This document shows, piece by piece, positions 32,824 to 64,000 of a stretch of DNA of 64,000 nucleotides. Source of the DNA: Patescibacteria group bacterium (GTDB lineage Bacteria > Patescibacteriota > Microgenomatia > UBA1400 > Chisholmbacteraceae); contig JADFLW010000003.1 of the NCBI GenBank assembly GCA_022564195.1, positions 12,747 to 76,746 on the forward strand, read 5' to 3'. The translations under genes and the position numbers were made by a program. A model generated the notes under the pieces. The model was not told where the DNA came from. It made no database searches and saw only the letters and a list, made by a program, of their open reading frames with translations. The first letter of the stretch is position 1; each line of letters begins with the position of its first letter.

Positions 32824-34605
32824 ATGTGTGGAATTTTCGGATACGTAGGTCACCAAGAAGACGCAGCCGACATCGTCTTTGAGGGCTTAAAAAGATTGGA
32901 ATACCGCGGATACGACTCTTGGGGAATTGCGGTCAAAAAGCCAGGAACGGGCAGCAAAAATACCTTTGCGATCAGGAAAAGAACGGGAAAGATCGGAAAC
33001 GCCAAGGTCAGTGACCTCCCCAAAAGCAGCTTTGGTTTAGGACACACGAGGTGGGCAACCCATGGTGGGGTAACCAAAATTAATGCCCACCCACATACCG
33101 ACTGCACAGGTTCCATTGTCTTGATCCACAACGGCATAATCGAGAATTACGAAAAGTTGAAAAAGAACCTTATAGCCCACGGCCACCGTTTTGTGTCCGA
33201 AACAGATAGCGAAGTTGCGGTCCATTTGATTGAAGAGCTCAACAAAACCTGCTCATTCACAGAGGCAGTTCGCAAAGCTTTTCTTAAGTTGGAGGGCTTA
33301 AACGCCATAATCGTCATGCATCCGCGAGCGCACACATTTGTTGGGGTCCGGAACGGATCGCCACTTGTCGTTGGTTTGGGAAAGGGAGGAAACTACCTTG
33401 CCTCAGATGCTGCCGCTCTCCTGCCTCACACCAAGAAGGTGTACTTTTTAGAAGATAACGATTTGGTGGTAGCAGACGCAGAGAATGTCCAAATCATCGA
33501 GGTGAAAACGGGGAAGAGAAAGAAGATCAAGCCGCGTACGCTTACCTGGAGCATAAAGCAAGCTGAAAAAGGGAAGTACCCCCATTTCATGATCAAAGAA
33601 ATTCATGAACAGCCGTCCATACTCTCTGAGATTGCTTCGAGTGGTCTCTCTAATGCCAAAAAGCTCAGCAAACATATCGATCAGGCCTTCGACACCTACA
33701 TGGTGGGCTGCGGAACCGCTTCATATGCCTGTATTGCAGGTTCCTACCTTTTTTCCAAAATCGCCAATCGTCATATCAACTGGGCTGTTGGAAGCGAATT
33801 CGGATATCAGCTAGACTTTTTAACCCCAAAAAGCCTGGTTATGGCACTCTCTCAATCTGGCGAAACAATAGATACACTTGAAGCGGTGAAGAAAGCGAAA
33901 GGGAAAGGCGCAAAGATTTTTGCACTTGTCAATACACTTGGGTCGTCTCTGTATCGTGAAGCCGACTATTCAATGCTCATTGGTGCAGGACCAGAGAAAG
34001 CCGTCGCCTCCACAAAAGCCTTCACTGGAAAGCTTGCCCATCTGGTGCTTCTTGCATACGCTCTGGCCGGCAAACCAAAGAGTGGTCAATCGACACTCTT
34101 GAAAGCCGCAAAGGCAAGCAAGACAGTCCTCACTCCTGAATCTAGGGCGAGGATAAAAAAACTCGCGGAGAGGATGAAAAACAAAGAGCACATCTATGTT
34201 ATTGGAAGAGGCTTATCGTACCCCGCGTCGCTAGAAACCGCATTAAAAATCAAAGAGATCTCCTACATCCATGCCGAAGGATTCGCGGCTGGAGAATTGA
34301 AGCACGGCGTGATCGCGCTTGTCGAGAAAGGTACCCCTTGCATTGCCTTTTTACCTAACGATGAAACGTATGGTGCCAATCTCGCTGGCGCGATGGAAAT
34401 GAAGGCCCGTGGCGGCTCCATCATCGGGATTTCCCACAAGCCGCACGAGGTCTTTGATTTCTATATTCCAGTGGCAGATGCTCAAGAAGCCACGATCATT
34501 CCCAATGTCATCGTCGGTCAAGTCTTAGCCTATTATCTCGCGATCGCGCGCGACCTCGACCCCGACATGCCCCGCAACCTCGCTAAATCCGTAACGGTGA
34601 AGTAA
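32824..34605 (+). CDS. glmS: glutamine--fructose-6-phosphate aminotransferase
   Basis: 'MCGIFGYVG' Ntn-amidotransferase start followed by two SIS domains. Confidence 0.9.
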   Translation: MCGIFGYVGHQEDAADIVFEGLKRLEYRGYDSWGIAVKKPGTGSKNTFAIRKRTGKIGNAKVSDLPKSSFGLGHTRWATHGGVTKINAHPHTDCTGSIVLIHNGIIENYEKLKKNLIAHGHRFVSETDSEVAVHLIEELNKTCSFTEAVRKAFLKLEGLNAIIVMHPRAHTFVGVRNGSPLVVGLGKGGNYLASDAAALLPHTKKVYFLEDNDLVVADAENVQIIEVKTGKRKKIKPRTLTWSIKQAEKGKYPHFMIKEIHEQPSILSEIASSGLSNAKKLSKHIDQAFDTYMVGCGTASYACIAGSYLFSKIANRHINWAVGSEFGYQLDFLTPKSLVMALSQSGETIDTLEAVKKAKGKGAKIFALVNTLGSSLYREADYSMLIGAGPEKAVASTKAFTGKLAHLVLLAYALAGKPKSGQSTLLKAAKASKTVLTPESRARIKKLAERMKNKEHIYVIGRGLSYPASLETALKIKEISYIHAEGFAAGELKHGVIALVEKGTPCIAFLPNDETYGANLAGAMEMKARGGSIIGISHKPHEVFDFYIPVADAQEATIIPNVIVGQVLAYYLAIARDLDPDMPRNLAKSVTVK

Positions 34606-46900: not shown

Positions 46901-46989
46901 CGAAAGGTTTTGAGGAGGAAATCAAACGAAGAACTCTGACAGGAGAATTGACAGAAGGGAAACCGTTCAAGGTAGTAAAGGCCAATTGA
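43948..46989 (+). CDS. ileS: isoleucine--tRNA ligase
   Basis: Class I 'P..ANN.MGVHHG' HIGH-type and 'MHKSWGN' KMSKS-type motifs, plus a large editing domain. 1013 aa. Confidence 0.85.
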   Translation: MLPMMKNHTPKPVDAVPDFPLLEKNLLDYWRKSGIVDKYLQRNDKSKKYFSFIDGPITANNPMGVHHGWGRTYKDVWQRFYNMMGFKQRFQNGFDAQGLWVEVEVEKQLGFKTKKDIEKYGIAKFVQKCKDHVMKYSRIQTEQSKRLGYFMDWDNSYYTHSDENNYMIWHFLKECHKNGWLYKGKDSVPWCPRCETAISQHEMLTEDYKEVVHESIYLALPIEGRRNEYLLVWTTTPWTIPANIAVAVDKKLDYALVKSEGGKTYWVAHETVKRVFLNVKHRMVRTAKGSQLVGLKYRAPFDDLPAVQKVARENPKTFHTVIPTDTRILQILTTEGTGLVHTAVSAGSEDFKLGKKLGLPMIPVIQDNAEYFPEFGVLSGKNAKKHPEVVLDEIRALDEKPGQHWAFKIENYLHRYPTCWRCKTELVWKVTDEWYIAMDKPSKSKAKTQNSKVKTLRERMMEVTKKIRWIPTFGLDRELDWLENMQDWLISKKNRYWGLCLPIWECEECGGFEVIGSKVELKKRAVDGWDQFQGKSPHKPQIDKVKVKCKKCGETISRIEPVGSPWLDAGIVPFSTISKDNKSAPLYRAHRSQWEKWFPADFITESFPGQFKNWFYSLIAMATVLENKEPFKTVLGFATLLGEDGRPMHKSWGNAVEFNEGADRIGVDVMRWMYVTQNPTQNLLFGYQTASMVRRQFHLILWNSYRFVANNMAVEKPDLKKNPRKLDVLDRWILSRLNNTTDKVTKALLDYNANDAAKHLDEFVQDFSTWYIRRSREKVGPTANNQTSKFAFYHTSIEVLTTLSKLLAPFTPFIADVIFRNLTGETSVHLADWPRADKKMIDRNLEEKMEIAREIVEGLHALRKKHSRKVRQPLRAWSFDAKEKNVFRNYPGILELIEHETNVKVFIPADERLLNLEERKDARVEWTKVSSKYLGEITIYLDLNLTKELEREGNARELIRRIQKQRKKLGTKLNEKVVVTVPTIPKGFEEEIKRRTLTGELTEGKPFKVVKAN

Positions 46990-51496: not shown

Positions 51497-51572
51497 GGGC
51501 TCATAGCTCAATCGGCAGAGTGCTTCGTTCACATCGAAGAGGTTCCAGGTTCGAGTCCTGGTGAGCCCACCA
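51497..51572 (+). tRNA. tRNA-Val: tRNA-Val (anticodon CAC), CCA encoded
   Basis: Manual cloverleaf. Acceptor GGGCTCA/TGAGCCC. D-arm GCTC..GAGT. Anticodon stem CTTCG/CGAAG with loop TTCACAT. T-arm CCAGG-TTCGAGT-CCTGG. Discriminator A followed by CCA. Confidence 0.8.
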
Positions 51573-51574
51573 AT

Positions 51575-51910
51575 ATGAAAATCGTCTCTCTCGAGAAACT
51601 CAAAGATGAACCGCTGACTCACAGTCCTAAGATCAAGAAACGGGTTTTGCTAAAAAAAGGAGAGGTTCCTCATCTGACAAGTTTCTCACAAGCCACTTTC
51701 AAGCCTGGACAAATCGCCAGCGAACACGTCCATGAGGATATGTACGAAGTCTATTTAGTTCAAGGTGGAACGGGCCTGATCAAAGTCGATGGAAAAGTAC
51801 ACCAACTCAAAAAAGGCGACTGCGTGATGACTGAGCCAGGAGAGAACCACGAATTCATCAACACCGGCTCCGAGGACTTAGTCCTCACCTACTTCGGAAT
51901 ACAAAAGTAA
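51575..51910 (+). CDS. cupin-domain protein
   Basis: 111 aa with 'GQIASEHVHEDMYEVYLVQGG...GENHEFIN' double-His cupin motifs. The ORF-track start at 51491 overlaps the tRNA and is rejected. Confidence 0.6.
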   Translation: MKIVSLEKLKDEPLTHSPKIKKRVLLKKGEVPHLTSFSQATFKPGQIASEHVHEDMYEVYLVQGGTGLIKVDGKVHQLKKGDCVMTEPGENHEFINTGSEDLVLTYFGIQK

Positions 51911-52006
51911 AGGAAATTCTTCTTAGGGAAAAAAGAAACCAAATAAGAACGCGTGTATGTAGGGATTGAAGAGAAAGAGAAAGCCAAACCCCAAAAAGGG
52001 GAGGTG

Positions 52007-52037
52007 AGATAGGCTCAGAGCCCACCTCACCTGTTCT
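52007..52037. terminator. bidirectional hairpin terminator between the cupin gene (+) and the island operon (-)
   Basis: 'AGGTGAG-ataggctcagagcccac-CTCACCT' is a 7-bp stem. On the - strand it is followed by CCCCUUUUUGGGG and a U-rich tract. Confidence 0.35.
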
Positions 52038-52199
52038 CTCGCCGCCTCACAAGGCCATTGTAGGCCCAGAGTCCCAGGCCTCCCGCACATAGTGGGAAGA
52101 CGGAGGAAAATGACGAGATTGCTCAACACCTCTCGCACTTCAGTAAGCTCATGGATGCGATCCGACCGATAGCTAAGCGGCCGTGTGATCACGAGCGCG

Positions 52200-53639
52200 T
52201 CAGCTCTCCGCAACAGCTGCTGGGCGAGCAGGAGCCGGACGTCCGAGCCCGAGCTCCTCGGCGTAGTAGGTGATCGGTTTATCCCTCGTCTCCCTGATGA
52301 GGTCCTTTTGGGCGAACACCCACCGATTGGTAGCCTCATTGCCATTCCAGTAGACAGCTTTCACCCGCTTGATTTCGTCATACTGATCACTGGTGGTAAG
52401 GTTTTTAAGCTTCCGGCACTTCGACCTACCCACATTGATCTTCGGATGGTCAGCTAAAGGGTTGTCGGTGAACAACCACAAGAGAGTCGAGAGCGAAAGC
52501 ATCTTCTCCCGAGCAAAGTAGGCTTCGGTGGTCTGCTCCCCTCCTTGCTCATAGAGAACGTCGACGATGAGTGTCAGGCTTCGTTCCTTGCCGTCTCCGT
52601 TCGGCCGCGAGTCCCTGTACTGGCCTTTGATCGCCAGAAGCTCTGTGCCAAAGGCGATTGATTGGACGGAAATGGCTCCCGGAATCCAAGGCTGGCCTTC
52701 GGTTTTGAAGTCGCCTTCCGTTCTGAAGACCGGGCTGCGGGAATGGCCCTGGACGACCTTCGTCCCCGAGGTCTTGATCGCGATCACGCGTTTCCCGGAA
52801 GCCGTCAGCCGCCGAGCGCGCTTGATGAAAAACTCTCCCATCTGCACCCAGGCGAACATCGGGGTGACCCCTTCTGGCGCAGCATAGAGCTCCACTCGAG
52901 GATCTTCCAGATGGCCCATGAACAGCATATCATCGCTGAGGTCCGTGTAGTCCTCTTCCCGCTCTCCGGCGATGCAGGCCATGAGATGAAAGTCTGAGTA
53001 CTGATCCTCCTCCATCATCAACATCGCTGCCCTAAAAATCGCCCGTAGATTCATGGTCTTGCCAACTCCACCTGGACCGGCAATCCATAGACCGTGGCCT
53101 TCGCCGAGCGGCCATCCGCCACGGAAAATGATCCCGAGGACAGGTTCGTACTCTTCGTCCCAGGAAACCCGGCGATCGAAGTAGTCGAGTGGAAGAGGTT
53201 TGTTGGGATAGCGGCCGAAGATCTTGTTCTGATCCTCCTCGTCCGGCTTCGCAACCAAAGTGGGCCAATTTCGGACCACCGCAGCGTCCGTTTCCCCGTT
53301 GACGGAAATGATCTGAGTGATAGGGTCCGGAGGAACCTCTTCCTCGTTGTCGGATCTGCTGCTCGATCTGTCAGGCGGCTCCCGATAGAGGATAAGATCC
53401 CCTTCCCGTAATCCCCACAGCTCCACAGTAGGGGAAGGAATGAATCGGCCCCTTGCAAGGGACTCAGCAAAAATCTCACTCCTGGGGAATTTCGCCAACT
53501 TCTTGGCGTTTGGCGGGATGACCACCGTATCTGGAGTTCCCCATTTGCCGTATACAGGTCTCTGGCTCTGAGGGAGCTCCGAGAGGGGTCGTTGTAGTAC
53601 CAACCCACGCTTCGGTTTATCATCTTGTGTACTCAACAC
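52200..53639 (-). CDS. P-loop NTPase (island gene A), function unknown
   Basis: Walker A 'GPGGVGKT' in mid-protein and a candidate Walker B 'LTLIVDV'. The start is re-set to GTG at 53637-53639, because the conserved hairpin+SD leader motif ('GGAAAGGAG' + 8 nt) sits immediately upstream. The ORF-track ATG at 53699 lies inside that leader. Confidence 0.55.
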   Translation of the reverse strand: MLSTQDDKPKRGLVLQRPLSELPQSQRPVYGKWGTPDTVVIPPNAKKLAKFPRSEIFAESLARGRFIPSPTVELWGLREGDLILYREPPDRSSSRSDNEEEVPPDPITQIISVNGETDAAVVRNWPTLVAKPDEEDQNKIFGRYPNKPLPLDYFDRRVSWDEEYEPVLGIIFRGGWPLGEGHGLWIAGPGGVGKTMNLRAIFRAAMLMMEEDQYSDFHLMACIAGEREEDYTDLSDDMLFMGHLEDPRVELYAAPEGVTPMFAWVQMGEFFIKRARRLTASGKRVIAIKTSGTKVVQGHSRSPVFRTEGDFKTEGQPWIPGAISVQSIAFGTELLAIKGQYRDSRPNGDGKERSLTLIVDVLYEQGGEQTTEAYFAREKMLSLSTLLWLFTDNPLADHPKINVGRSKCRKLKNLTTSDQYDEIKRVKAVYWNGNEATNRWVFAQKDLIRETRDKPITYYAEELGLGRPAPARPAAVAES

Positions 53640-53648
53640 AAGTCTTTC

Positions 53649-53678
53649 TCCTTTCCTAGTGGGCCTCAGGCCCAACCG
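53649..53678 (-). promoter_or_regulatory. conserved leader hairpin + SD motif (copy for gene A)
   Basis: Gene-sense 'CGGUU-GGGCC-UGA-GGCCC-ACUAGGAAAGGAG'. A degenerate second copy lies at 53721-53750. Confidence 0.5.
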
Positions 53679-53996
53679 GTCAGTCCGTTTTCCAGTCATT
53701 GCTGGATTGGGAACAGGCTACCCTCTAGTAGTGGGCCTCTGGTCCAAAAGGAAATCTCTAGAGAGCATTCCGTTCCCAATCCGTACGCGTTCTTATTTGG
53801 TTGTCAAGGAGCTAATGCGAAGCATAAGCTCCGCACCCGCCAATATTTTTCGAGGGAGTATACGGCTGACTAAGCAGTAAGCCGACCATCGATAAAATAT
53901 GGTGGGAAAGTGCTATCCCGCTCAAGCGGGATCCAAATGCCCGCCCCAACAAACGCCAAATGTCTGTTTGCAGGCGTCTTATAAATTGTCAATTTT

Positions 53997-54063
53997 CCTC
54001 TGTTTCGCCCTCCGTAGCTTTAGCGTAGGGGGCTCATCAGTCAGCCTTTGGCTGAAACAGAAA
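53997..54063 (-). ncRNA. hammerhead ribozyme, type III (HHR-1)
   Basis: Gene-sense 'UUUCUGU U|UCAGCC-AAA-GGCUGA CUGAUGA G-CCCCCUACGC-UAAA-GCUACGGAGGG-C GAA ACAGAGG'. Canonical CUGAUGAG...CGAAAC core. Stem III UUUCUGU/ACAGAGG, stem I UCAGCC/GGCUGA, GUU cleavage triplet. Confidence 0.6.
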
Positions 54064-54225
54064 ACAACACAACAAAATCAAACTACAACCCCCTTCACAC
54101 AAACAAACAAACAAACAATTCATCAACCCCGCAAATGGGATTGAGATGTCTGCCGAATTTCGGTGAAGAGAGGGTGAGGGAGGGATCCCAAACTTCGGGA
54201 TCCCATTCCCATGTCAACGTCCCTC

Positions 54226-54576
54226 TTAGGACCGCCACGGTCTTCGGCCTATCCATTCGGCTGTTGGGAGGTCATTCCCGCGCCATCGTCCGTTGGATCG
54301 CAATGGATCCTCATTGACGACCTGACGTAAAAGCCCAATGGAAAGGGCGATCGCGCCGATGATGCCAACGAAAACGGCCAGGAAGCTCGAAACCAAACGC
54401 GAGAGTAGTGGAATGGACTCCACCAAATCTCGCTGAGCCGACGTTAACTCGCCGCCCGACGGAAAGCCAAATGCCGCAAACACATGAAGCGCGAATATGC
54501 CTCCCAGGAAAGGTAGGAGCAAATGAGGCCGATGAAAAGTGCTAAATGGACTCGGAAGTACCAGTCCGAAAACCAT
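54226..54576 (-). CDS. small two-TM membrane protein (pilin/VirB2-like topology)
   Basis: 116 aa. GAGGAG SD 8 nt before the ATG. Hydrophobic N-terminal segment, polar loop, second TM helix. Confidence 0.4.
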   Translation of the reverse strand: MVFGLVLPSPFSTFHRPHLLLPFLGGIFALHVFAAFGFPSGGELTSAQRDLVESIPLLSRLVSSFLAVFVGIIGAIALSIGLLRQVVNEDPLRSNGRWRGNDLPTAEWIGRRPWRS

Positions 54577-54677
54577 TTCGGTACGCTCCTCTCATTCGGC
54601 TCTTTCCTCTTAGCTCCCAAAGGAGCACGTCCGCGATTCTTGCCGTTTCCCGCGATCCAACCCCTCAAAGTGATCAA
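54444..54677 (-). CDS. possible small one-TM ORF (TTG start) overlapping the previous gene in another frame
   Basis: Preceded by a perfect copy of the conserved hairpin+SD motif ('CGGUU-UGGCC-AGA-GGCCA-ACUACGAAGGGAGG'). Overlaps the 54226-54576 gene by 132 nt, so one of the two is probably mis-modelled. Confidence 0.2.
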   Translation of the reverse strand: MITLRGWIAGNGKNRGRAPLGAKRKEPNERSVPKWFSDWYFRVHLALFIGLICSYLSWEAYSRFMCLRHLAFRRAAS

Positions 54678-54680
54678 ATC

Positions 54681-54716
54681 CTTCCTCCCTTCGTAGTTGG
54701 CCTCTGGCCAAACCGG
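54681..54716 (-). promoter_or_regulatory. conserved leader hairpin + SD motif (copy for small ORF)
   Basis: See the leader-motif finding. Confidence 0.45.
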
Positions 54717-54914
54717 ATACTGGAACGCTTCATTGGGCGATTGATCCCGAATGAAGGATAAAACGGATAAGTCCGGGAGGAGCAGGTTCGAGAGAACCCA
54801 ACTCCTCTTTTTTTGGCTAGCGCCGATCAGATCAAGAGCAAGAGCAATGCATACCCCAGCCATTTCAACTGAACGTTTTGGAACATGATCGCTCCTTCCA
54901 TCGAATCGTCGTGA

Positions 54915-56537
54915 CTAAGACGACGAATCGTTCTCATCAACCTCTCGGAGTTGAGACGGTCTGGTTCGACCGCCTGACGATTTCCCGCGACGAAGCCGTA
55001 GCGAGACGCGCCCCCGTGACACCGCGGTATCCCCCGACGCCAAAGCGCTATCGTCGACTTCGCGTAGGGTAGAGGATCTCTTCGCCGGCTGCGCAACCTC
55101 CGGTGGTTGAGCCACATCCGTGACCCGATCCACCACAGTCGGCTGCAGTTCACGATACTTCTCTTGCACGTATCGCGCCTCGATGTCGGCGATGTGCCAT
55201 CCCTGACCGAGCAACCGGGCAAACAGCCTGAGCGTAATACCAGAGCGAAGGCAGAACGCGATCGCGTCGTCCCTCTCAAGACCAGCGTCTTCGATGCGCT
55301 TACGCTTGTAGAAGGTATCGCTGTCCCACAGCGCTTCGAGCTCTGCGCGAAATTTCGCGTTGTCTTGCTTGAGCTCGTCAAGCGAGCGGGTGATCACCGG
55401 ACGGCCCGGGAGTTCATCAGAGAACTCCTCCTGAACCTCCGCAATGGTGACCCCAGGCATAGCCAGTTCTTGCCCGATCTCGAAGCCTTCAAAGCTCCAA
55501 TGATCGGGATCCTCGACTGTGGCCTCGTCAATCGTGGAGGGTTCTGCCTTGATCCGAAGCAGGGCGTCGTAATGAACCATCACTGCCTGGAAAGCCTCCT
55601 CCGCCTGCGCATCGGTCGCGCCTCCAGCAAGGGCCTCCACTCCAGCTGCATTCGCTCGACTCTCAGCTGTGCCTCGAAGCTGTAGCATGAACGCTGCGCG
55701 TCGTCGAATCTTGCCCCGAGCATTCATGAAAGCGACGGCATTCTCCCTGTAGAGAGCCAAGTCGTGTGCCCGTGGCCCGGCCCTGGAGGGGAAGCTCAAG
55801 CTCATGACATCCTCTTTCTGGAATCTGCGCTTGTTCCACCACTTCCTGAGTCGACTCGTCTTGATATCATTATCGAGCAGGTCAGGATCGGTGCGGGCCA
55901 ACACGTCTTCGATCATCGTCGTCGGCGTCGCCGAGATATACATATCCTCCCCGGCCTTGAATAGGCTGGGAATGGTGACACCGCCTTTGCGATGTCGCAT
56001 CTCATCAGTGTAGATGAGATACCTGTCTTGGCGTTGCTGCCAGCGAAGGACGTGGTACGTAAGCGTCGGCGTGAGGAACGCAAGCACAGGCCACGCCCAA
56101 AACGCCATCCCCCATTCGGGGGCCGATGGGTCGATCAACTTGAAATCGGGGACGTCTGGCGAAACCGTGATCGCCGCTACAAATGCGCCCAACGCCAAAT
56201 TGATGAACGACACCGTGACAGCCAGGAGAAACGGCCCAAAGATGCTAAAACCGAAGGCGAAGGGAGACCATTTGAGAAACTCCGGCCAAACGTACGCCTT
56301 CTTGCTCATTTCCAGCACCTTTTCAAGCCTAACTCCTGCCTCGAGTTCGCGCGTCCGCTTCTTCTCACTCACGAGGAAGAAAAAGTCGAAGACACGCTGG
56401 ATCACCTTCTCCCCGAAAGGGAAGATCATCAGTGTTGCAGAGAAGATGATCCAGACGCAAACCACGATGATGGCAAGGCCAACATACGCGGCTGCATCCG
56501 ACGGAAGTACCTCTGAAAGGAACTCTTCGAACGTCAC
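54915..56537 (-). CDS. membrane protein with N-terminal TM bundle and large cytoplasmic domain (island gene B)
   Basis: 540 aa, with 3-4 N-terminal TM helices and no P-loop. GTG start (complement 56535-56537) 8 nt after an AAGGAG SD that lies within the conserved leader motif. Confidence 0.5.
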   Translation of the reverse strand: MTFEEFLSEVLPSDAAAYVGLAIIVVCVWIIFSATLMIFPFGEKVIQRVFDFFFLVSEKKRTRELEAGVRLEKVLEMSKKAYVWPEFLKWSPFAFGFSIFGPFLLAVTVSFINLALGAFVAAITVSPDVPDFKLIDPSAPEWGMAFWAWPVLAFLTPTLTYHVLRWQQRQDRYLIYTDEMRHRKGGVTIPSLFKAGEDMYISATPTTMIEDVLARTDPDLLDNDIKTSRLRKWWNKRRFQKEDVMSLSFPSRAGPRAHDLALYRENAVAFMNARGKIRRRAAFMLQLRGTAESRANAAGVEALAGGATDAQAEEAFQAVMVHYDALLRIKAEPSTIDEATVEDPDHWSFEGFEIGQELAMPGVTIAEVQEEFSDELPGRPVITRSLDELKQDNAKFRAELEALWDSDTFYKRKRIEDAGLERDDAIAFCLRSGITLRLFARLLGQGWHIADIEARYVQEKYRELQPTVVDRVTDVAQPPEVAQPAKRSSTLREVDDSALASGDTAVSRGRVSLRLRRGKSSGGRTRPSQLREVDENDSSS

Positions 56538-56540
56538 ATC

Positions 56541-56576
56541 TCACACTCCTTCGTAGTGGGACTCTGTCCCAACCGA
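56541..56576 (-). promoter_or_regulatory. conserved leader hairpin + SD motif (copy for gene B)
   Basis: Gene-sense 'CGGUU-GGGAC-AGA-GUCCC-ACUACGAAGGAG'. Confidence 0.5.
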
Positions 56577-56624
56577 ATGAACCATACGCGTCGTTGCGCG
56601 TGGGCTCGAAAATGAACCCGACGG

Positions 56625-56683
56625 AGTCGGGGCCACATTAGAGCCCACTGCCTGACACGCAGGCACTCTCTACGAATGATCAA
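56625..56683 (-). repeat. conserved leader block (copy 1 of 2)
   Basis: About 85% identical to 60808-60852: 'TCGGGGCCACAT.AG.GCC.AC.GCC.GACACGCAG..ACTCTCTA'. Confidence 0.5.
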
Positions 56684-56782
56684 TTCCCATCTTTCCTTTC
56701 TATAATCTTGTTGTGTTGTCAAAGTGCGTATCCCTCGCCCGTATACCACGCTCGCATTGAGCAGGTTTGAGTTTGGAATGTA

Positions 56783-56854
56783 TTCTGTTTCGTCCCTCCA
56801 TAGCTTATTAGCGACGGGGGACTCATCAGGTCCGACGTATATCGGACGACAGAA
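56783..56854 (-). ncRNA. hammerhead ribozyme, type III (HHR-2)
   Basis: Gene-sense 'UUCUGU C|GUCCGA-UAUACG-UCGGAC CUGAUGA G-UCCCCCGUCGC-UAAUAA-GCUAUGGAGGGA-C GAA ACAGAA'. Perfect 6-bp stem III, 6-bp stem I, canonical GUC cleavage triplet. Confidence 0.65.
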
Positions 56855-56943
56855 AAACACAACAAGTAGAGCGAGGGGGGGAGAAGCAAGATGGGTGGGT
56901 GGACCGAAGGTCCACCCCTGTAGCGAGCGTTCGCTACCCCATC

Positions 56944-58407
56944 TCACTTCACCGTTGTTGCCGCGCAGGTCCCAAGGACCAACCACGGGTCCATCCAACC
57001 CCGATTCATCTCTCCGTAGAGAACGAAGTCATCGGGATGCTGATCGGAAACCCCGATATGGACATGCGATCCAGCATCGGGATTCTCAGAAGAAGGCTTC
57101 GGATAGACGTCGCCGGTATTGCCGCACTCGCCGATCTTTTGGCCTTTCTTCACCTTCCTTCCCGGGATCATCAAGAACGCCTTCTTGTCAAGGTGGGCGT
57201 ATACAACGTAGATCCCACCATGATCGATCCAGATATGCTTTCCGAACCCGGTGATCCCATCCATGAGCGTACCGGACGAGGGCTTGATGATCTTCCCGTC
57301 CGCGAGAGCCACGATCGGATCGCCTGTCGAACAGTCGAAGTCTCCACCGTAGTGGATGATGATCTTCTTGTGTCCATCCTCGTCTTCGACCTCGCGTTCT
57401 TCGAGCCACTCCCCAGTCACTACGATTGGGAAGCCTTCCGGAAACGGCGCTTCAAGAAACCCCGTCACTTCCGGCAGGAGCCCGAGCGCATCCAGGAGGT
57501 CGATGATCCATTTCCTGAGGAAGTCAAACATTCCCCAGTCAACGGTGTCTTCCGACCCTCCCGTGCCGATGACGCCGACGTCCCCAACGAGAGCATTGAT
57601 CTCTGCAGCCCTATTGACCAGGACTCCGACATAAACAAAGTCGCAGTTCCAACTGCAGTACAACGCATCGATCTTCTCTTTGCGAGACAGATTCGCTCTG
57701 TAGCCGATGGCATGCAACCAGGCGGGGATCGCGTGGAAGGAAACCTTCTCAGACCAGAAGTCACAACTTCGAACTTCGTCGTCGTTGCTCTTCTTCAGAT
57801 ACTTCTGGCAGACGATCTTCGCCGTTGTCGGTAGCCAACCGCCCCGACCCATCTCTCCGGCGCCACAGTGGCTTATGTAGCCCCCGTAGCCCTCGTAGAT
57901 ATAGGCGCGGGCGATCGGATTGCGATCCCGGACATCGTGTTTGCGCCAGTGTCGCATCATCCACCGGGCAGCGGCTAACTCCTTGCGAAGTTGCCGAGGG
58001 TTATGACCCCAGCGCTGCTTGATGCTCGATTGCCAGTCGCAGGAGCCCATGTTGTTCCCACTCGCGGATTCAAACTGCTCGATCGTGAGCAGAATGCCGA
58101 TGTCGATGTTGGCGCCGAAGCGGCGGTTACACCATAAACGCCCGGCCTCGGCATTCGCCACGGCTGAGGGAGAAAATCCCAGGGATGCAACTCGCTCCTG
58201 ATCCTCAGGGGACAGGGCAAAGTCGTATCCGCCGCAGCCGAGTCCCAACCAACGACTAACGATCTCGTTGTAGGAGTTGGGAAAGGTGGCGTGGGCGTAC
58301 CACGCGAACATGATCCCGGTAAAGGAACCGAAAATCAACAGAGGTACGCCCATCAAACTCACCAGCCCGATGAATCTACGCAGGAGTCGTTGTCCTGCAT
58401 TCATCAT
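56944..58407 (-). CDS. membrane-anchored cell-wall hydrolase with C-terminal M23 (LytM) peptidase domain (island gene C)
   Basis: N-terminal TM segment. C-terminal 'HYGGDFDC.TGDPIVALADGKII...HIWIDHGGIYVVYAHL...GECGNTG...GSHVHIGV' matches the M23 HxxxD...HxH pattern. Translationally coupled to gene D, 9 nt downstream of its stop. Confidence 0.7.
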   Translation of the reverse strand: MMNAGQRLLRRFIGLVSLMGVPLLIFGSFTGIMFAWYAHATFPNSYNEIVSRWLGLGCGGYDFALSPEDQERVASLGFSPSAVANAEAGRLWCNRRFGANIDIGILLTIEQFESASGNNMGSCDWQSSIKQRWGHNPRQLRKELAAARWMMRHWRKHDVRDRNPIARAYIYEGYGGYISHCGAGEMGRGGWLPTTAKIVCQKYLKKSNDDEVRSCDFWSEKVSFHAIPAWLHAIGYRANLSRKEKIDALYCSWNCDFVYVGVLVNRAAEINALVGDVGVIGTGGSEDTVDWGMFDFLRKWIIDLLDALGLLPEVTGFLEAPFPEGFPIVVTGEWLEEREVEDEDGHKKIIIHYGGDFDCSTGDPIVALADGKIIKPSSGTLMDGITGFGKHIWIDHGGIYVVYAHLDKKAFLMIPGRKVKKGQKIGECGNTGDVYPKPSSENPDAGSHVHIGVSDQHPDDFVLYGEMNRGWMDPWLVLGTCAATTVK

Positions 58408-58416
58408 GCACCGCCA

Positions 58417-60717
58417 TCACCACTGGCGTCCGGTGACATTCAGGATGCTGTCCGGAATGTCGTTGATCAGGTTGTAGTACACTTCGTCCCGATCCACCGG
58501 ATTCCGCACGATGATGCGGTAATACGGCATCTTCCGGAACCAGAGTTCCAAGGGGAAGGATTCGGCAAACCCCTCGATGAACGCCTTGACCTGATCGACC
58601 GTGTGCGCCGTAGCCACGAACCAGATGCGATCCTTATGGATCCCGTCCAGGGCATACACGCACCAGTCGCGTCCTCGCATGCCGATATCGTGGGGGATCA
58701 TGCCCAGCTCTTCATGCTTAGTGAGCGCCGGCCAGGCGTAGATGTCTTCGATGGTCAGCGAACAGATCGGGGGCGTCGGCCACTCATAGCCGGCATACCC
58801 GGTCTCCCACTCCTCATACTCGGGCGTCACTCCCTCGATATCGTCGGGCGGGACTGCCCAGTTCCTGAAGCGGAGGTTGAACTCCTCCAGATCAGCGAGC
58901 ACGTAGTGGGAGTAGGCGAAACTCTTGATCGAAGGCATGAGAAGCTCTGGCATACCGACGAACTTGCCCGTCTTCCACCATTGCTTTGCCTTGGCTTGAA
59001 CCCGGGCGCGTGCCTGCGCTTCTACCTTGCGCATCAGTTCCATCTGGTCCTCGACGGTGTGCGCATCTGCGATGCTCACCACGTTGATGTCACCACCGTG
59101 GTGCTTGACCCAGTTGATGGCACCCTCTTGCCTGGCAGTCGTCAAGGCAACACGCTTGCCGAAGGGGCCGACCTGGTTGCCGCCGAGGGCAGCGTCCCAA
59201 GTGGTCTTCCCGCGTTCACCTTTGCCAATGAGCAGGAGATGTTTGTAATTCTCCCGATCGATGAAGACCGGATGCCCGGTCTCCTCGTCTTTGCCCCAGT
59301 AGTGGGTACCCTGGATCTCGCCGATCCCGTTGACCGTCGAGACCAGCCCGTGCAGCAGCTCATCAGCACCAGTCGTAACCGTGTGCCGGAACCGAGTCAG
59401 GGGATAGTCCAAGATCGGATCCAGTGGCGGTGCCCCAGGAATCATTTTCCGGAACGCCTTCTGCAGCTGGTCAAACAGCCCCGTGACTCTGTGCCACTCT
59501 CCCAGGTTGCTGAGCCTGAGCTCAACATCGTCGAACTTGGGCATCCGCCCGTTTTCGATCTGGGAGGAGGTGCGGAGGAGCGTCGTGATGTACAGCTCTC
59601 GGGATTGAAGATCACCCTCAAACCACGGCAGCTTGACGCGCTCACACTGAATCCAGATGTCCAGATCCAGCTCCGGGTCAAGTAGATCCTGCAGAAACTC
59701 GTGCGGGAACGGACCCTTCCAGATCCTGTAGGCGCGATCGCCCAAGATGTAGTAGTCATGCCGCCATTTCGGGCGGATCGGGCAAGCAACCTCCAGGGGA
59801 GGCAGTGGTCGTTCAGCCAGCTTGATCGGCCGGCGGTGAATCACCGAGTGCAGGAACGAACCGAACAGCTGATAGGGCAGCACCAAGCCGCCCATCGCCG
59901 CCGAAGTCCCGCGACTACCGATGAACGCACCCGAGAGACCAGTAATGATCAGGTTCCTCTCGTAGAGTTCCTTCCCATCATAGCCCTGTTGGTAGTCACC
60001 CAGGGCAGCGTCTTGGATCTCGTCGATCAGAATCTTATAGGGGCGATTCCCCTGACGCCTGATCTCGTCCAGATGTCTCTTGAAAGGTTCCACGATCATC
60101 GGCGAGTTGAGAAGGAGCATGGTGATGACGTTGCCAAGATGGGAGTCACCCCAATGGTGTAACATCAAGTTGATACCCGCCACCACATGACGTGTGCCGT
60201 CCTCGTCAGGCACGGTATATCCGTGCTGGAGCGGTCGATTGTGAAACACAACCGATCGCCATTTCTTGCGAGTTGCGGTCGGATCGCTGTCAGCCTTCTT
60301 TCGCCAATTGGATGGCCAAAGGCGAGCCAGAGTGGCAAACAGTCCTTTTCGATCCGAAAGCTCGAGCGGAGCGACCATCAGCATATTGCCGTAGCGTGTT
60401 TCTGCGGTCGCGCGAAGCCCCAAGATTTCTTCAGCGGTTCCCTCGTCAACATTGGGATCCCTTTTCTTGCGGGCTGAGATCCTCAGCGGTTCACGCTGAG
60501 GTTTGCTCCCCATTTTCTCTTCCATTACGGAAGGAAGAAGGGGCGCCGGTGTCCTCACTCCCCGAGCGAGCATATGGCCAACCTCTGGCAGTTCCGGCTC
60601 TGGTTGTTCCAGATCCGGTTGTACCGCCTCCGGTTGTTCCACACTGTGGTCAGCCTCTGGCTGTGGCTGTACCACAGTCCCGTCAGGGTGAACCTCTGCC
60701 TGTGCGTCGGTATTCAT
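58417..60717 (-). CDS. large P-loop NTPase (VirB4-like or SF3-helicase-like; island gene D)
   Basis: 766 aa from ATG 60715-60717, 4 nt after an AGGAGG within the conserved leader. Walker A 'LLLIGKGERGKTT' at about residue 500, with candidate Walker B 'NVVSIAD' or 'YVLADLEE'. Acidic Pro/Glu-rich N-terminus. The ORF-track start at 60828 is an upstream extension through the leader. Confidence 0.55.
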   Translation of the reverse strand: MNTDAQAEVHPDGTVVQPQPEADHSVEQPEAVQPDLEQPEPELPEVGHMLARGVRTPAPLLPSVMEEKMGSKPQREPLRISARKKRDPNVDEGTAEEILGLRATAETRYGNMLMVAPLELSDRKGLFATLARLWPSNWRKKADSDPTATRKKWRSVVFHNRPLQHGYTVPDEDGTRHVVAGINLMLHHWGDSHLGNVITMLLLNSPMIVEPFKRHLDEIRRQGNRPYKILIDEIQDAALGDYQQGYDGKELYERNLIITGLSGAFIGSRGTSAAMGGLVLPYQLFGSFLHSVIHRRPIKLAERPLPPLEVACPIRPKWRHDYYILGDRAYRIWKGPFPHEFLQDLLDPELDLDIWIQCERVKLPWFEGDLQSRELYITTLLRTSSQIENGRMPKFDDVELRLSNLGEWHRVTGLFDQLQKAFRKMIPGAPPLDPILDYPLTRFRHTVTTGADELLHGLVSTVNGIGEIQGTHYWGKDEETGHPVFIDRENYKHLLLIGKGERGKTTWDAALGGNQVGPFGKRVALTTARQEGAINWVKHHGGDINVVSIADAHTVEDQMELMRKVEAQARARVQAKAKQWWKTGKFVGMPELLMPSIKSFAYSHYVLADLEEFNLRFRNWAVPPDDIEGVTPEYEEWETGYAGYEWPTPPICSLTIEDIYAWPALTKHEELGMIPHDIGMRGRDWCVYALDGIHKDRIWFVATAHTVDQVKAFIEGFAESFPLELWFRKMPYYRIIVRNPVDRDEVYYNLINDIPDSILNVTGRQW

Positions 60718-60757
60718 ACGACCTCCTAATGGGTAGTCGGCCTCTTGGCCGAACCGA
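60718..60757 (-). promoter_or_regulatory. conserved leader hairpin + SD motif (copy for gene D)
   Basis: Gene-sense 'CGGUU-CGGCC-AAGA-GGCCG-ACUACCCAUUAGGAGG'. Confidence 0.5.
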
Positions 60758-60807
60758 AAGACTTTTCGCGTCATTGCGCGATTGGCCCAAAAATGATCCC
60801 GACAACG

Positions 60808-60852
60808 TCGGGGCCACATCAGGGCCAACCGCCCGACACGCAGACTCTCTAG
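60808..60852 (-). repeat. conserved leader block (copy 2 of 2)
   Basis: See 56625-56683. Confidence 0.5.
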
Positions 60853-61010
60853 GAGATCTCAAAAATCCAATAATTCCTCGCTCTATTCTTGTTGTGTTGT
60901 CAAAGTGCTATCCCGATGAGATGTCGGGATTTCATTGCCCGCATACGCAAACGCTTCTCGTTCACAACGCGGGCCGTAAATAACTCAGGTTGTCAAGTTT
61001 GTCTGTTTCG

Positions 61011-61082
61011 CCCTTCGACTGCCTGTCCTACTGACAGTCCGCTCAGGGGCTCATCAGGTCCGACGTATAGCGGACAACAAAC
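61011..61082 (-). ncRNA. hammerhead ribozyme, type III (HHR-3)
   Basis: Gene-sense 'GUUUGU U|GUCCG-CUAUACGU-CGGAC CUGAUGA G-CCCC...(extended stem II)...GAAGGG-C GAA ACAGAC'. Stem III GUUUGU/ACAGAC with a G-U pair. Stem I covaries with HHR-1. Confidence 0.6.
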
Positions 61083-61242
61083 AAACACAAACAAGAAGAA
61101 GCGACACTCTCTACCAAAGACAAAAAACCAACAAACCAACCCCGCTACTGGGATTGAAAAGGTTCTTTGCTTGAGCAAAAGAGTGAAGGTGGATAGAGAG
61201 GGTTCAAACATCGAACCCCCTCCTATCACCTGTGCATTCCCA

Positions 61243-61626
61243 CTAGCCATCCTTCCCATCTTGGCGTTTCGCCAACGTCGCTCGGTCCTCTGGACCTTGA
61301 CCACGGGTGGTGAAGATCCGTTGAAGGGTAACGTCCCGCTTCAACAGGGTGTCGAACGGCTTGGCCCGTCTGTTGCTTTTCCTCGCCTCAATCAGATGCG
61401 AGTTCGTCTCCCAAAAGAGGTGTAGGAAAAACAAGCTAACATAGGCCATTGCGATAACGGCACTCACCACCGTGATCAACGGTAAGTCGCCTTCGAGGAG
61501 AAGGCTCATCTCGTTGTACACGAGGAGCAAGTCAGAACCGACCAAGATAAGTAGGACGGCCCGTAACCGCATTGGGTGGGAAGTATCCACAAGCCAGTAG
61601 TGAACTGACCTGACTCGCTCATACAT
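61243..61626 (-). CDS. small two-TM membrane protein, translationally coupled to gene E
   Basis: 127 aa. The ATG overlaps the gene E stop (ATGTATGA). GGGAGGT SD upstream. Confidence 0.4.
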   Translation of the reverse strand: MYERVRSVHYWLVDTSHPMRLRAVLLILVGSDLLLVYNEMSLLLEGDLPLITVVSAVIAMAYVSLFFLHLFWETNSHLIEARKSNRRAKPFDTLLKRDVTLQRIFTTRGQGPEDRATLAKRQDGKDG

Positions 61627-63397
61627 CGCTCACCTCCCGGAGATAGCGCGATGGCCCTTGCCGCTTTCGAGGCTGGGAACGTTGAGCCCGTACTGGACGA
61701 GCCACGTTTTCCTCCATAGGGACATCTGCGGATTGGCGCAGCTGCCGTGTACGCCGACGCTCGTCCACCGATCTCGTCACATGGACTATCGCGCCAGTTG
61801 CCCACTTTGCAGGCCTAAGCTGCGGATTGATTTTGGCAGCGATGTCAGCAGCCGTATCTTGCACTTCAAAGTAGCGAAGCGGAAGCCTTCTCATGCGTTC
61901 CGCAAACCCAGGAGATTCCTCTCGGAAGCCCTCAGGCCGAGCAGACGGATCCCGTAGGATACCAGCCTGTCCGTCGACGGAATCGTCAGCCATCCAAGCA
62001 CTGCCGGGCTGAGAGACAGATCCGCTCACGCGTCCGACTCCCGGTTGACGGAGCGCCCCAGGCTGATCGCCAGTGCGTACCCTTCCGGGAGCTCGAGTAT
62101 CGCTGATACCACCAGCACTTCCTTGAGATGCGGAAGCAGTCGGCCTTCGAAGACGACTCCCGAACTGGAGGGAAACCTTGGTCTCCTCTTCCTTCCGGGA
62201 GAGCGATCTGGATCCAGCTCGCCTGCCGCGATATCGACCGGTCGGACCGGTCGCACGGGAACCTGGGGTTCCCCTCACCGGCCCTCGACGACTTCCTCCT
62301 TTCGCATCGCGCAAGCCACCCAACCTGTCGCCTGGCTTTCCCTTCGTACCAAGAGGTGGGTCCTTGGAAGGACTGCCTTTGTCCGAGGGAGCAGGAGGCA
62401 CCATCGGCCCGGGTGGCGGAAGCCGCGCTTGGCCAGAGCGTTCGTCGCGGAGTCGCGCTTGGCTCGGTCCACCAGTAGGGATTGGCCCTGTAGTAGCGGT
62501 GGCCGTTGCGGTTGTGGTCCGCCGATAGCGTCTCACGTCAACGCCTCGCAGACCAGCGACGCCAGCCGCGTCGAAGCTCCGCAGCGTGCTGCGTCGCCTT
62601 CTGCCTTCTTGCGCTTGCACTGCCTGTCCCTCTGCTTCCTTGAAGGAGGTGACTGGCGCAAACACCAGTGCGATGACCGGCAGTATGACGTAGCAGATGA
62701 GCTGCGTGAGTCCGAGCACCCAGGCATAGAGCCCGATGTTGGCGGTCTGTGTCGAGATTGGTCCTACTTCCAGCGTCGGAGTCCCGCTGACCAGAAACGT
62801 GATCATGCTGAACCCCCAACTGAAAAGCAGCCAGCCGACAACTTGCGCTACCCAAACATTCATGGGTCTCGTGTTACCCACGATCACGGTGGCGAAAATC
62901 GCAACCACGTACGTCAGCAGCATAATGGCCTGAACGTACCGGTGGATCAACGCAACATTGAGGATAACCCCCACCAGCATTGGCGCATTCACGATGTCGG
63001 CGATTGAAGGGCTCGTCAAGCCAAACGCTTCTGCGATCGAAAAGAGGCTGATATCGTCAGGTTGAAGTCGCGACCCGACCAGGGTGAGCGCCGGGATGAC
63101 AGCCCCCACAAACCCTGCCCCGAAGGTGAGGATCTGCCATTTGATGACACCTCCTGTGTCCTGTCTACTTGCCGCCTGCAGCGCCTTGTACGTCGCCAAC
63201 GGCACGAGAATGAGCAGGATGCGAGTCAACCTCCGATATTTCTCAAGATCCGGTTTCAGAAACCAGAGCCCGAGCCACTTCTCGTTGATCGCTCTCAGGA
63301 TATCTCCGATAGGACCGAGAGGTTCCTCACTGCTGCACGCGGCGAGAATCAACCCACCAAGCATCAGCAGCAGGAGAGACAGCGCCTTGCGTTTCAT
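61619..63397 (-). CDS. polytopic lipoprotein with long disordered Arg/Gly/Pro-rich C-terminal region (VirB6/TrbL-like topology; island gene E)
   Basis: Lipobox 'LILAAC'. About 6 TM helices in the N-terminal half. Low-complexity 'RGxRG/PGxxG' tail. 'TTTATATATTGP' Thr-rich run. Confidence 0.55.
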   Translation of the reverse strand: MKRKALSLLLLMLGGLILAACSSEEPLGPIGDILRAINEKWLGLWFLKPDLEKYRRLTRILLILVPLATYKALQAASRQDTGGVIKWQILTFGAGFVGAVIPALTLVGSRLQPDDISLFSIAEAFGLTSPSIADIVNAPMLVGVILNVALIHRYVQAIMLLTYVVAIFATVIVGNTRPMNVWVAQVVGWLLFSWGFSMITFLVSGTPTLEVGPISTQTANIGLYAWVLGLTQLICYVILPVIALVFAPVTSFKEAEGQAVQAQEGRRRRSTLRSFDAAGVAGLRGVDVRRYRRTTTATATATTGPIPTGGPSQARLRDERSGQARLPPPGPMVPPAPSDKGSPSKDPPLGTKGKPGDRLGGLRDAKGGSRRGPVRGTPGSRATGPTGRYRGRRAGSRSLSRKEEETKVSLQFGSRLRRPTASASQGSAGGISDTRAPGRVRTGDQPGALRQPGVGRVSGSVSQPGSAWMADDSVDGQAGILRDPSARPEGFREESPGFAERMRRLPLRYFEVQDTAADIAAKINPQLRPAKWATGAIVHVTRSVDERRRTRQLRQSADVPMEENVARPVRAQRSQPRKRQGPSRYLREVSDV

Positions 63398-63401
63398 GGC
63401 G

Positions 63402-63956
63402 CTACCGTGGAGCTGCCGGTTCCGCGAACTCCTGAGTGAAATGGTCGATGATGTTCACTCCTCGAGGGGGCAGGAAGCTGTCGAAACCGATCAGTTCACC
63501 CGCGATCCCGATGACGATGATGATCCCGACCATGATCCCGATCCAGGTGCCTATGGGCGAAGGTGCGCCTGCTGCCGTCGGTCTCCTCACGTTTAACGGC
63601 CCGAAGAAGACCGCATAGAGAATAACCAACACACCGGCGACGATGACGTACCAGTGAATTCTCAACAGAAATCTCTCTTCGTCTTCACCTTCCTGCAGCA
63701 AGACGCCCATGAGCAAAATGCCCGTGAACGCCGTTGCCTGCAGACGCGTTCCAGAAATGGGGCCATAGTTACGCTCCCCGATTCTGGCGAGATCGATCCT
63801 CGCTGTCAGCCGCTGAAGCGGTTTCAGCAGAAGGATCGCGATCGTGTAGAGCAAAGCCAACACGATCAACGGGTTGGGCTCAAGCAGAAACTGCACAAGC
63901 CCCGAAAATGGGGTGGAAAGCATCGCCACTCCATGAGCAAAAAGTGTGTCCAACAT
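63402..63956 (-). CDS. small polytopic membrane protein (island gene F)
   Basis: 184 aa with 4 hydrophobic segments. AGGAG SD 8 nt upstream, preceded by a covarying leader hairpin. Confidence 0.45.
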   Translation of the reverse strand: MLDTLFAHGVAMLSTPFSGLVQFLLEPNPLIVLALLYTIAILLLKPLQRLTARIDLARIGERNYGPISGTRLQATAFTGILLMGVLLQEGEDEERFLLRIHWYVIVAGVLVILYAVFFGPLNVRRPTAAGAPSPIGTWIGIMVGIIIVIGIAGELIGFDSFLPPRGVNIIDHFTQEFAEPAAPR

Positions 63957-63961
63957 AGTGG

Positions 63962-63995
63962 ACTCTCCTATCTAGGGGTGATTGATTCACCCTCC
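63962..63995 (-). promoter_or_regulatory. conserved leader hairpin + SD motif (copy for gene F)
   Basis: Gene-sense 'CGGAG-GGUGA-AUCAA-UCACC-CCUAGAUAGGAGAG'. Confidence 0.4.
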
Positions 63996-64000
63996 GGTCA

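Follow-up and report, generated by a model that had tools for sequence, protein, structure and literature searches.

A GC-rich island in a Patescibacteria genome that probably combines a divergent type IV secretion-like machine with hammerhead ribozymes and a Rho-family ATPase

The stretch of DNA considered here (64,000 nt of contig JADFLW010000003.1, from a Patescibacteria bacterium; hereafter the window) carries a GC-rich island that extends from approximately position 51,950 to the window end, with the upstream end of the island lying beyond the available sequence. The explanation that we regard as the probable one is that this is an acquired island encoding a divergent type IV secretion system (T4SS)-like machine of the monoderm type, expressed as one transcript that is cut by hammerhead ribozymes, and carrying a dedicated Rho-family ATPase as its constant last gene. 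The genes are referred to as F, E, a 127-aa gene, D, C, B and A, in the order of transcription; loci outside the window are given L numbers. An original prediction, made from the letters of this DNA, had proposed a GC-richer, single-strand island beside a tRNA-Val gene, with a T4SS-like or prophage-like gene set.

A single-strand block of foreign composition

The GC content is 0.55-0.59 between 52 and 64 kb, compared with 0.43-0.51 in the backbone, and the step between the two lies at approximately 51,950. GC content at third codon positions (GC3) is 0.675 in the island versus 0.522 +/- 0.042 in the backbone (24 genes), and tetranucleotide usage correlates at 0.32-0.52 between island and backbone, compared with 0.90-0.94 between backbone segments. 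The minus strand carries all of the long open reading frames (ORFs) from 52.2 kb onward, and the junctions between them are tight, with a gap of 9 nt between D and C, a gap of 4 nt between F and E, and an overlap of 8 nt (ATGTATGA) between E and the 127-aa gene. Thus, both the GC-richness and the coupled, single-strand arrangement that had been predicted are confirmed, and the proposed comparison of GC and tetranucleotide profiles shows that composition is not uniform across the boundary.

The VirB4-like ATPase and the envelope proteins

Protein D (58417-60717, minus strand) contains a Walker A motif, GKGERGKT, and is 766 rather than 803 aa in length when its start is placed at 60717, a revision made from the conserved leader hairpin and Shine-Dalgarno sequence described below. 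A word-indexed homologue search with D found only D itself, and an exhaustive HMMER scan identified 32 representatives of 1.84 billion as its relatives. Neither D nor 28 aligned relatives match the VirB4 families of Pfam (CagE_TrbE_VirB, AAA_10 and similar); the Pfam matches of these 29 sequences, which were aligned at E<=0.01, are to generic P-loop families only, and Walker A residues G503 and K504 are invariant among them. The AlphaFold model built from the 29-member alignment has a predicted local distance difference test (pLDDT) score of 80 and was used in place of a single-sequence model, for which the score was 34. When this model is compared with the PDB using Foldseek, the top six matches are all to TrwK/VirB4 of the R388 T4SS, over 750-840 columns and with a best E of 3.7e-13; HerA is next in the ranking (E 3.6e-6), and viral structures fit more poorly (template modelling score about 0.2). 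The model shows two domains, the N-terminal domain of VirB4 and a C-terminal RecA/FtsK-HerA-type ATPase. Because the TrwK/VirB4 matches are full length and the viral structures are worse, D is, at the level of its modelled fold, a VirB4-like two-domain ATPase that lies outside Pfam's current models. The original prediction of a large NTPase of about VirB4 size is therefore borne out over the full length of the protein, and its suggestion of an undescribed element family agrees with the tiny size of this protein family outside Pfam.

Another reading, that of an anti-phage defence island built on a HerA-like ATPase, is barely plausible. It was rejected, since PADLOC matched none of the 10 proteins searched; in addition, the full-length Foldseek matches of D are to VirB4 only, and D is accompanied by a wall hydrolase and membrane proteins instead of nucleases or Sir2.

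The gene that follows D encodes C (56944-58407, minus strand), a membrane-anchored peptidoglycan hydrolase with one N-terminal transmembrane segment and an M23 domain. C matches Pfam PF01551 (7.7e-17; 61.7 bits against a cutoff of 28.7), a profile search of the PDB gives M23 matches down to 1.9e-20, and the zinc/catalytic residues H352, D356, H448 and H450 (HxxxD/HxH) are invariant in six homologues. The predicted M23 hydrolase is thus recovered above cutoff and with its motifs intact. C also has a conserved N-terminal domain, for which a profile search of the PDB returned no matches.

The remaining proteins can be described by hydropathy scan and synteny. E (61619-63397, minus strand) is a lipoprotein with a lipobox, about 5 further transmembrane segments and a long RG/P-rich disordered tail; by its topology and position it would be VirB6-like. 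A 127-aa protein with 2 transmembrane segments, whose gene overlaps the end of E (61243-61626, minus strand), would by the same kind of analogy occupy the VirB3 position. F (63402-63956, minus strand), of 184 aa and 3 transmembrane segments, is conserved at the head of the core block. B (54915-56537, minus strand) is a 540-aa membrane protein with at least 2 transmembrane segments and a large soluble domain, and appears to take the place of the VirB8-like gene in monoderm T4SS operons. One or two small ORFs, as candidate genes, lie between B and A (54226-54677, minus strand): one encodes 116 aa with 2-3 transmembrane segments (54226-54576), and the other encodes 77 aa (54444-54677) and has a leader hairpin upstream (54694-54710). 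The related island L037 has a 113-aa gene at this position. D and A are soluble by the same scan, and the membrane topologies of the original prediction were in this way reproduced. B and E share a C-terminal motif, ...(S/R)xLRE(V)(D/E), that follows a disordered tail and also occurs in the homologues of both proteins from other islands; it may represent a common docking peptide.

In searches of Pfam, PHROGs, NCBIfam and PADLOC, the M23 domain of C is the only part of these proteins to be recognised, apart from weak P-loop/Rho signals. Of the profile searches that had been suggested, those with C (M23) and A (Rho, see below) gave matches, and those with B and E against the PDB were empty, as were searches of Pfam with these two proteins. 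The proposed T4SS or mating pair formation (MPF) character therefore holds where it can be tested, in the fold of D and the M23 domain of C, and the gene order and topologies fit a monoderm MPF module.

Hammerhead ribozymes and conserved leaders

Three type III hammerhead ribozymes lie within the block, all of them on the coding (minus) strand. They are positioned upstream of D (HH-D, 60998-61085, with predicted cleavage 3' of nt 61076, GUU), upstream of B (HH-B, 56780-56857, with predicted cleavage 3' of nt 56848, GUC), and upstream of A (HH-A, 53995-54065, with predicted cleavage 3' of nt 54056, GUU). Each has a CUGAUGA ... GAAA core, a GUH triplet and an open stem III. Against Rfam RF00008, HH-A scores 37.3 bits (E 2e-6) and another copy scores 20.5 bits; these scores are under the gathering score of 48.5 because of long insertions in stem II. 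With a custom model, HH-B and HH-A score 82 and 69 bits, respectively. Across an alignment of five sequences, 97.8% of the cells are paired and 10 of 18 pairs have changed on both sides, while none of 500 shuffles reached as high a value and slid controls were 35-52% paired. In L042, L043/44, L045 and L046 the custom model also finds a copy before the D homologue, and in L046 a further one after the M23 gene; none of these belonged to its training set. Overall, a hammerhead precedes the virB4-like gene in six of seven other distinct islands (L033 and L037 included), the exception being L039. Both the cleavage at these sites and the co-transcription of the island genes are predictions from sequence.

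The hammerheads are embedded in leaders that are themselves conserved. The leader of D (60733-61104, minus strand) is a repeat of the leader of B (56553-56874, minus strand), with 78-86% identity over about 320 nt. The B leader contains HH-B, a hairpin with a U-tract (56617-56631) and, at 56554-56570, a hairpin of the form GGUU-[5-bp GC stem]-loop-stem-ACUA. The corresponding hairpin of the D leader is at 60734-60751, and that of A, at 53657-53673 on the minus strand, lies directly before the Shine-Dalgarno sequence and start of the gene. This element directly precedes the Shine-Dalgarno sequence of D, B, A and other cistrons; the six copies on the coding strand comprise the three above, the one at 54694-54710, and two in L002, a contig that extends the island upstream (2124-2140 and 5688-5704), compared with none on the opposite strand and one in 51 kb of backbone. 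The stem sequences differ between copies. A similar hairpin lies upstream of D in L039. A 178-aa ORF on the plus strand (60889-61425) that overlaps the ribozyme leader, annotated as a gene in the public assembly, is almost certainly spurious.

Among the results listed by a literature search, no paper contained terms for hammerheads or self-cleaving ribozymes together with terms for Patescibacteria or the Candidate Phyla Radiation (CPR). Clustered hammerheads that cut polycistronic RNAs of integrated or prophage regions are already known [Perreault et al. 2011, PMC3088659], and those of the island resemble them in that several coding-strand copies flank single genes or short blocks within one long transcription unit of a foreign region. 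The island hammerheads differ in being type III, in being embedded in a T4SS-like operon, and in the retention of the site before the virB4-like gene among islands whose proteins are 25-45% identical.

Such clusters are typical of prophage regions (PMC3088659), and together with the many small membrane proteins, and with the occurrence of M23 domains in phage lysins and tape-measure proteins, they speak for a fragment of a prophage or membrane-containing virus, in which D would be a packaging ATPase, C a lysin and the small membrane proteins virion parts. Against this, searches of PHROGs and Pfam with the island proteins of four loci found no capsid, portal, terminase, tail or replication family, the PHROGs matches being to the M23 domain only; no viral structure fits D nearly as well as VirB4, which matches both of its domains; and a single-protein query of IMG/VR with D returned no relative. 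Beyond the ribozymes, the prophage alternative of the original prediction is thus without support and lacks any PHROG hallmark. The island is probably not a prophage, and we give this origin a very small probability.

A Rho-family ATPase as the last gene

The last gene of the island, A (52200-53639, minus strand; 479 aa), whose start was likewise revised, to 53639, from the leader hairpin and Shine-Dalgarno sequence, had been noted as encoding a second P-loop protein. The P-loop is present, and the protein proves to be more than that. A profile of four A homologues matches Rho in the PDB with an E of 3.5e-17 over Rho residues 93-388, an alignment that runs from the end of the oligonucleotide-binding (OB)-fold domain through the entire RecA-type ATPase domain and includes, in addition to the P-loop, GERxED (DERPEE in Rho), LDSGT (LDSIT in Rho) and an RSLT segment. 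By this comparison A is a divergent homologue of Rho, a member of that family of hexameric ATPases. It differs from Rho in that it is far under the NCBIfam cutoff (22.7 bits versus 628), with a match that leaves out the N-terminal 150 residues, and in its setting as the last gene of an island, bracketed by a conserved inverted repeat. A is kept as the terminal gene in L037, L039, L043 and L045. Presumably the host has a Rho of its own besides A; none is seen within the window.

The repeat that brackets A is a perfect inverted repeat of 18 nt (ACCAAATAAGAACGCG), with its 5' arm at 53785-53802 and its 3' arm at 51937-51954 (minus strand), the latter coinciding with the GC boundary of the island. 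An identical 16-mer brackets A in L039/L029 (L039 9783-9798 and 11426-11441), where A is 48% identical to the protein of the window, and a variant repeat in L037 (19450-19463 and 21712-21725) brackets A plus one more gene. In the L037 variant one change is compensatory, and at one position the arms can pair only on the coding strand, as U.G. The repeat may form a long-range RNA helix or constitute a DNA site pair. A role as inverted repeats that delimit the entire island was rejected, as there are just two copies, both flanking A. A terminator-like 14-bp hairpin (GGUGAGG...CCUCACC), followed by CCCCUUUUUGGGG, lies at the operon end (52002-52032, minus strand), and a hairpin of this type follows A in three islands (the window, L039 and L037). 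A 140-aa ORF (51923-52345, minus strand) that overlaps the terminator region is probably spurious.

A family of related islands

The contexts of the D homologues revealed at least seven other distinct metagenomic islands. The block F-E-small transmembrane protein-D-M23-B-(small)-Rho-like A is found in L033, L037/36/38, L039/40, L042, L043/44 and L045, and in part in L046, with protein identities from 65% down to about 25%. It is usually preceded by a protein like the C-terminal domain of the RNA polymerase alpha subunit (alpha-CTD; in L033, Pfam 1.6e-8) and by a conserved protein of 120-142 aa; the alpha-CTD-like protein of L033 is weakly similar to a 462-aa protein of the window island, which is encoded upstream of the window end. 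No description of such an island family was found in the papers searched.

As in the window, each of these islands is richer in GC than its surroundings, with GC contents of 0.36-0.39 in the flank versus 0.45-0.51 in the island for L033, 0.38 versus 0.5-0.6 for L037, 0.3-0.35 versus 0.5 for L039, and about 0.40 versus 0.44-0.50 for L045. The islands of L033 and L037 start directly beside tRNA-Ala(ggc)/tRNA-Val(gac), in both cases on the 5' side of the tRNA, and L039 ends near a toxin-antitoxin pair and tRNA-Trp. Both boundaries are seen in L037 and L045, which span about 20.7 and 14.3 kb, respectively. A gene for a YafQ-like toxin (weak in Pfam) and an adjacent 87-aa gene, possibly its antitoxin, lie directly after the island in L039 (about 11600-12160) and L029 (2226-2785). 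L037 contains a gene for a 4Fe-4S ferredoxin-like protein after the M23 gene (13911-14414) and a low-GC segment with a reverse-strand orphan of 221 aa (3705-4370), which appear as variable cargo in a conserved frame.

An ordinary, vertically inherited Patescibacteria T4SS locus that is fast-evolving and GC-rich, rather than acquired, is improbable. Such a reading would suit the finding that about 80% of Patescibacteria have a chromosomal, relaxase-less T4SS (PMC12102498), the lack of detected mobility genes (see below), and the coverage of the island contig (4.3x) relative to the flanking contig (4.0x), from which the island is single-copy and chromosomal. It is opposed by values of GC3 and tetranucleotide usage that, for the islands of the window, L033, L037 and L039, are far from those of the backbone, by the variation in flanking genes from island to island, and by the rarity of the D family. 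Furthermore, the canonical VirB4 of CPR bacteria is retrieved by a VirB4 hidden Markov model (HMM) and is typically located near dnaA (PMC12102498), while D matches no VirB4 family of Pfam.

Host flank, upstream extension and assembly

On the host side of the boundary, a tRNA-Val(cac) gene (51497-51572, plus strand; ARAGORN, Rfam 68.3 bits) lies approximately 0.4 kb from the island end. The cupin gene between them (51575-51910, plus strand; Pfam Cupin_2) is counted as flank, its GC content of 0.44-0.47 and GC3 of 0.527 being host-like. Flank genes encode FtsA, FtsZ, IleS, RodA, ParB and LepB, with IleS 69% identical to that of a Candidatus Gottesmanbacteria metagenome-assembled genome (MAG) and 50% identical to that of a Paceibacterota MAG, which places the host among the CPR/Patescibacteria, probably close to Microgenomates. 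This IleS (43948-46989) matches the NCBIfam models for MupA/MupB mupirocin-resistant IleS, far under their cutoffs, and MAGs of CPR bacteria and of DPANN archaea are among the sources of its best relatives. A glmS ribozyme/riboswitch (32506-32716; 55.8 bits, above the gathering score) lies upstream of a 593-aa ORF (32824-34605), which we take from its position alone to be glmS.

In the other direction, three further contigs that carry protein E are 100% identical to the window over a shared 9.7 kb (54269-64000) and lengthen the island by at least 9.4 kb past the window end. Thus the window holds the downstream part, approximately 12 kb, of an island of at least 21 kb. The 9.4-kb extension encodes an array of small proteins with 2-4 transmembrane segments and the 462-aa protein, which has an internal duplication; none of these extension proteins has a match in Pfam or PHROGs, and a search of GTDB genomes with the 462-aa protein gave no matches. 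Contig L002 contains a tandem duplication of 3,564 bp (1-2283 and 3565-5847; 99.7% identity), each unit of which holds three or four small genes besides the gene for the 462-aa alpha-CTD-like protein, and two assemblies terminate within it. This duplication was considered as a signature of circular permutation and rejected as such. L002 also carries three copies of a 148-nt repeat (1554-1700, 5118-5264 and 8153-8300; 92.6% identity), which matches no Rfam family; its beginning forms a strong hairpin capped by UUCG, and a long helix is predicted after it.

Three public assemblies break, or have a 10-N scaffold gap, at window positions 54239-54269. The contig sets that meet here share a 31-nt overlap and have equal 4x coverage, probably deriving from one read set, and a fork at an attachment site was rejected on these grounds; low coverage at this point most likely explains the break. 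The adjacency of B and A across it is backed independently by synteny in four other islands.

Mobility

The rarity of the block, its foreign composition and its adjacency to tRNA genes show that it does move. How it moves is a matter of inference from gene content. Pfam searches that covered the window, its 9.4-kb extension and the loci L033, L037, L043 and L045 turned up neither an integrase nor a relaxase nor a type IV coupling protein (T4CP; VirD4/TcpA), and the sole second ATPase besides D is the Rho-like A. The two ends of L037, like those of L045, share no direct repeat of more than 11 nt. The absence of a recognisable integrase, as first predicted, is therefore upheld, also in the two islands that are bounded on both sides. 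Two of the checks proposed with the original prediction gave negative results: the direct repeat of the tRNA-Val 3' end is present neither in the window nor in the extension, and the sequence beyond 64 kb, as far as the extension reaches, revealed neither an integrase nor a relaxase.

These findings bear on the possibility of a self-transmissible integrative and conjugative element (ICE) that targets tRNA genes and in which the integrase, the relaxase and the coupling protein escape recognition through their divergence or are encoded in the upstream part. The combination of a VirB4-like ATPase, a hydrolase and membrane proteins in DNA of foreign composition would be expected of such an element, as would the rare and patchy distribution of the family; in addition, four of the islands lie beside or near tRNA genes (L033, L037, L039 and the window), and the island ends encode orphan proteins, one of 698 aa in L037 and two of 420 and 228 aa in L043/L045. 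On the other side, both fully bounded islands are devoid of a Pfam integrase, relaxase and T4CP, their ends and the tRNA-Val 3' end lack the repeats that were sought, L045 has no tRNA within 10 kb, and L033 and L037 lie on the 5' side of the tRNA. An ICE is an unlikely explanation. Because integrase, relaxase and T4CP are absent from two complete islands, a co-opted secretion apparatus is favoured.

A model for the island and its relation to known systems

The explanation that we prefer can be put together as follows. The island would have been acquired horizontally by a CPR bacterium, probably related to Microgenomates, and would encode an envelope machine similar to those of the MPF-FATA class. 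D would serve as the assembly/translocation ATPase on a membrane platform consisting of E, as the VirB6-like polytopic lipoprotein, and the 127-aa protein in the VirB3 position. The M23 domain of C would cut peptidoglycan cross-links, allowing the machine to span the wall, and B and the upstream array of small proteins with 2-4 transmembrane segments may be additional envelope or pilin-like parts. A single long minus-strand RNA would cover the island genes, and the three hammerheads would divide it into ...F-E-127, D-C, B-small and A mRNAs, every new mRNA beginning with a conserved leader that ends in the GGUU-hairpin-ACUA element before the ribosome-binding site. Such cleavage would allow separate levels of stability and translation for each module. 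A most likely acts on RNA, controlling termination or processing of the island transcript; a function as a substrate motor that replaces the coupling protein is less likely.

A more far-reaching version of the latter idea is that the system is a T4SS derivative in which a Rho-family RNA translocase replaces the FtsK-like coupling protein and which exports or transfers RNA, possibly the hammerhead-processed transcripts. We consider this highly unlikely. If true, the CPR cell would deliver RNA to its host or to further cells, and the constantly linked VirB4-like ATPase, Rho homologue, hammerheads and long-range helix around the Rho cistron, which is compatible with the sense strand, would form one RNA-based mobile or effector unit.

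Several points weigh against the proposal of an acquired island with a T4SS-like machine. Topology and position are the only basis on which E, the 127-aa protein and B are assigned, and the PDB profile searches with E and B were empty. Since neither a coupling protein nor a relaxase was found, no substrate is implied. In L045 the contrast in GC content is modest and there is no tRNA nearby, such that the term island is less clear there. The order E/127-aa/D/C/B would be colinear with PrgH-PrgI-PrgJ-PrgK-PrgL of pCF10, in which PrgK contains a LytM/M23 domain.

Among known systems, the MPF-FATA T4SSs (pCF10 Prg/Pcf, pIP501 Tra and ICEBs1 Con) share with the island a two-domain VirB4-type ATPase (at fold level); the gene order of a polytopic membrane protein, a small protein with 2 transmembrane segments, VirB4, a membrane-anchored wall hydrolase and a bitopic protein; and a one-strand operon of coupled genes. 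The island differs from them in that its proteins resemble no T4SS family at the level of sequence profiles, in lacking a T4CP and a relaxase, and in possessing a Rho-like ATPase, usually an alpha-CTD-like protein, hammerheads inside the operon and a CPR host. The second point of reference is the T4SS that is widespread in Patescibacteria without a relaxase, in which peptidase/lysozyme genes follow virB4, arrays of small VirB2-like genes occur in Microgenomatia, and which has been proposed to be a co-opted secretion apparatus [Quinonero-Coronel et al. 2025, PMC12102498]. The likeness to this system includes the CPR host, a VirB4-type protein with neighbours that in the island are VirB3/VirB6-like by topology and position, a peptidase after virB4, small membrane or pilin-like gene arrays as in Microgenomatia, and the lack of a relaxase. 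In contrast to its VirB4, which can be retrieved by HMM, is present in about 80% of genomes and is often near dnaA (PMC12102498), the D family is rare, has no VirB4 match in Pfam, and resides in foreign islands that often abut tRNA genes; the linkage to hammerheads and a Rho homologue is a further difference.

Implications

On the interpretation favoured here, the T4SS-type cluster of the island belongs to a lineage that current sequence models do not cover, and it is associated with hammerheads and with a homologue of Rho. Members of the CPR/Patescibacteria rely on surface contact with host cells. T4SS genes have been reported to be essential for the epibiotic growth of a Saccharimonadia strain, with the secreted substrates unknown (PMC12102498). 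A second T4SS-type lineage, missed by Pfam models, would be circulating as foreign DNA in CPR genomes, and the island would be a candidate mobile element for a phylum with few known ones. It would also bring together three elements that do not normally occur in combination, namely a VirB4-class machine, a Rho-like ATPase of its own and self-cleaving ribozymes whose place in the operon is conserved, and would offer a natural system in which to ask what purpose bacterial hammerheads serve and whether a T4SS may function with a non-FtsK motor.

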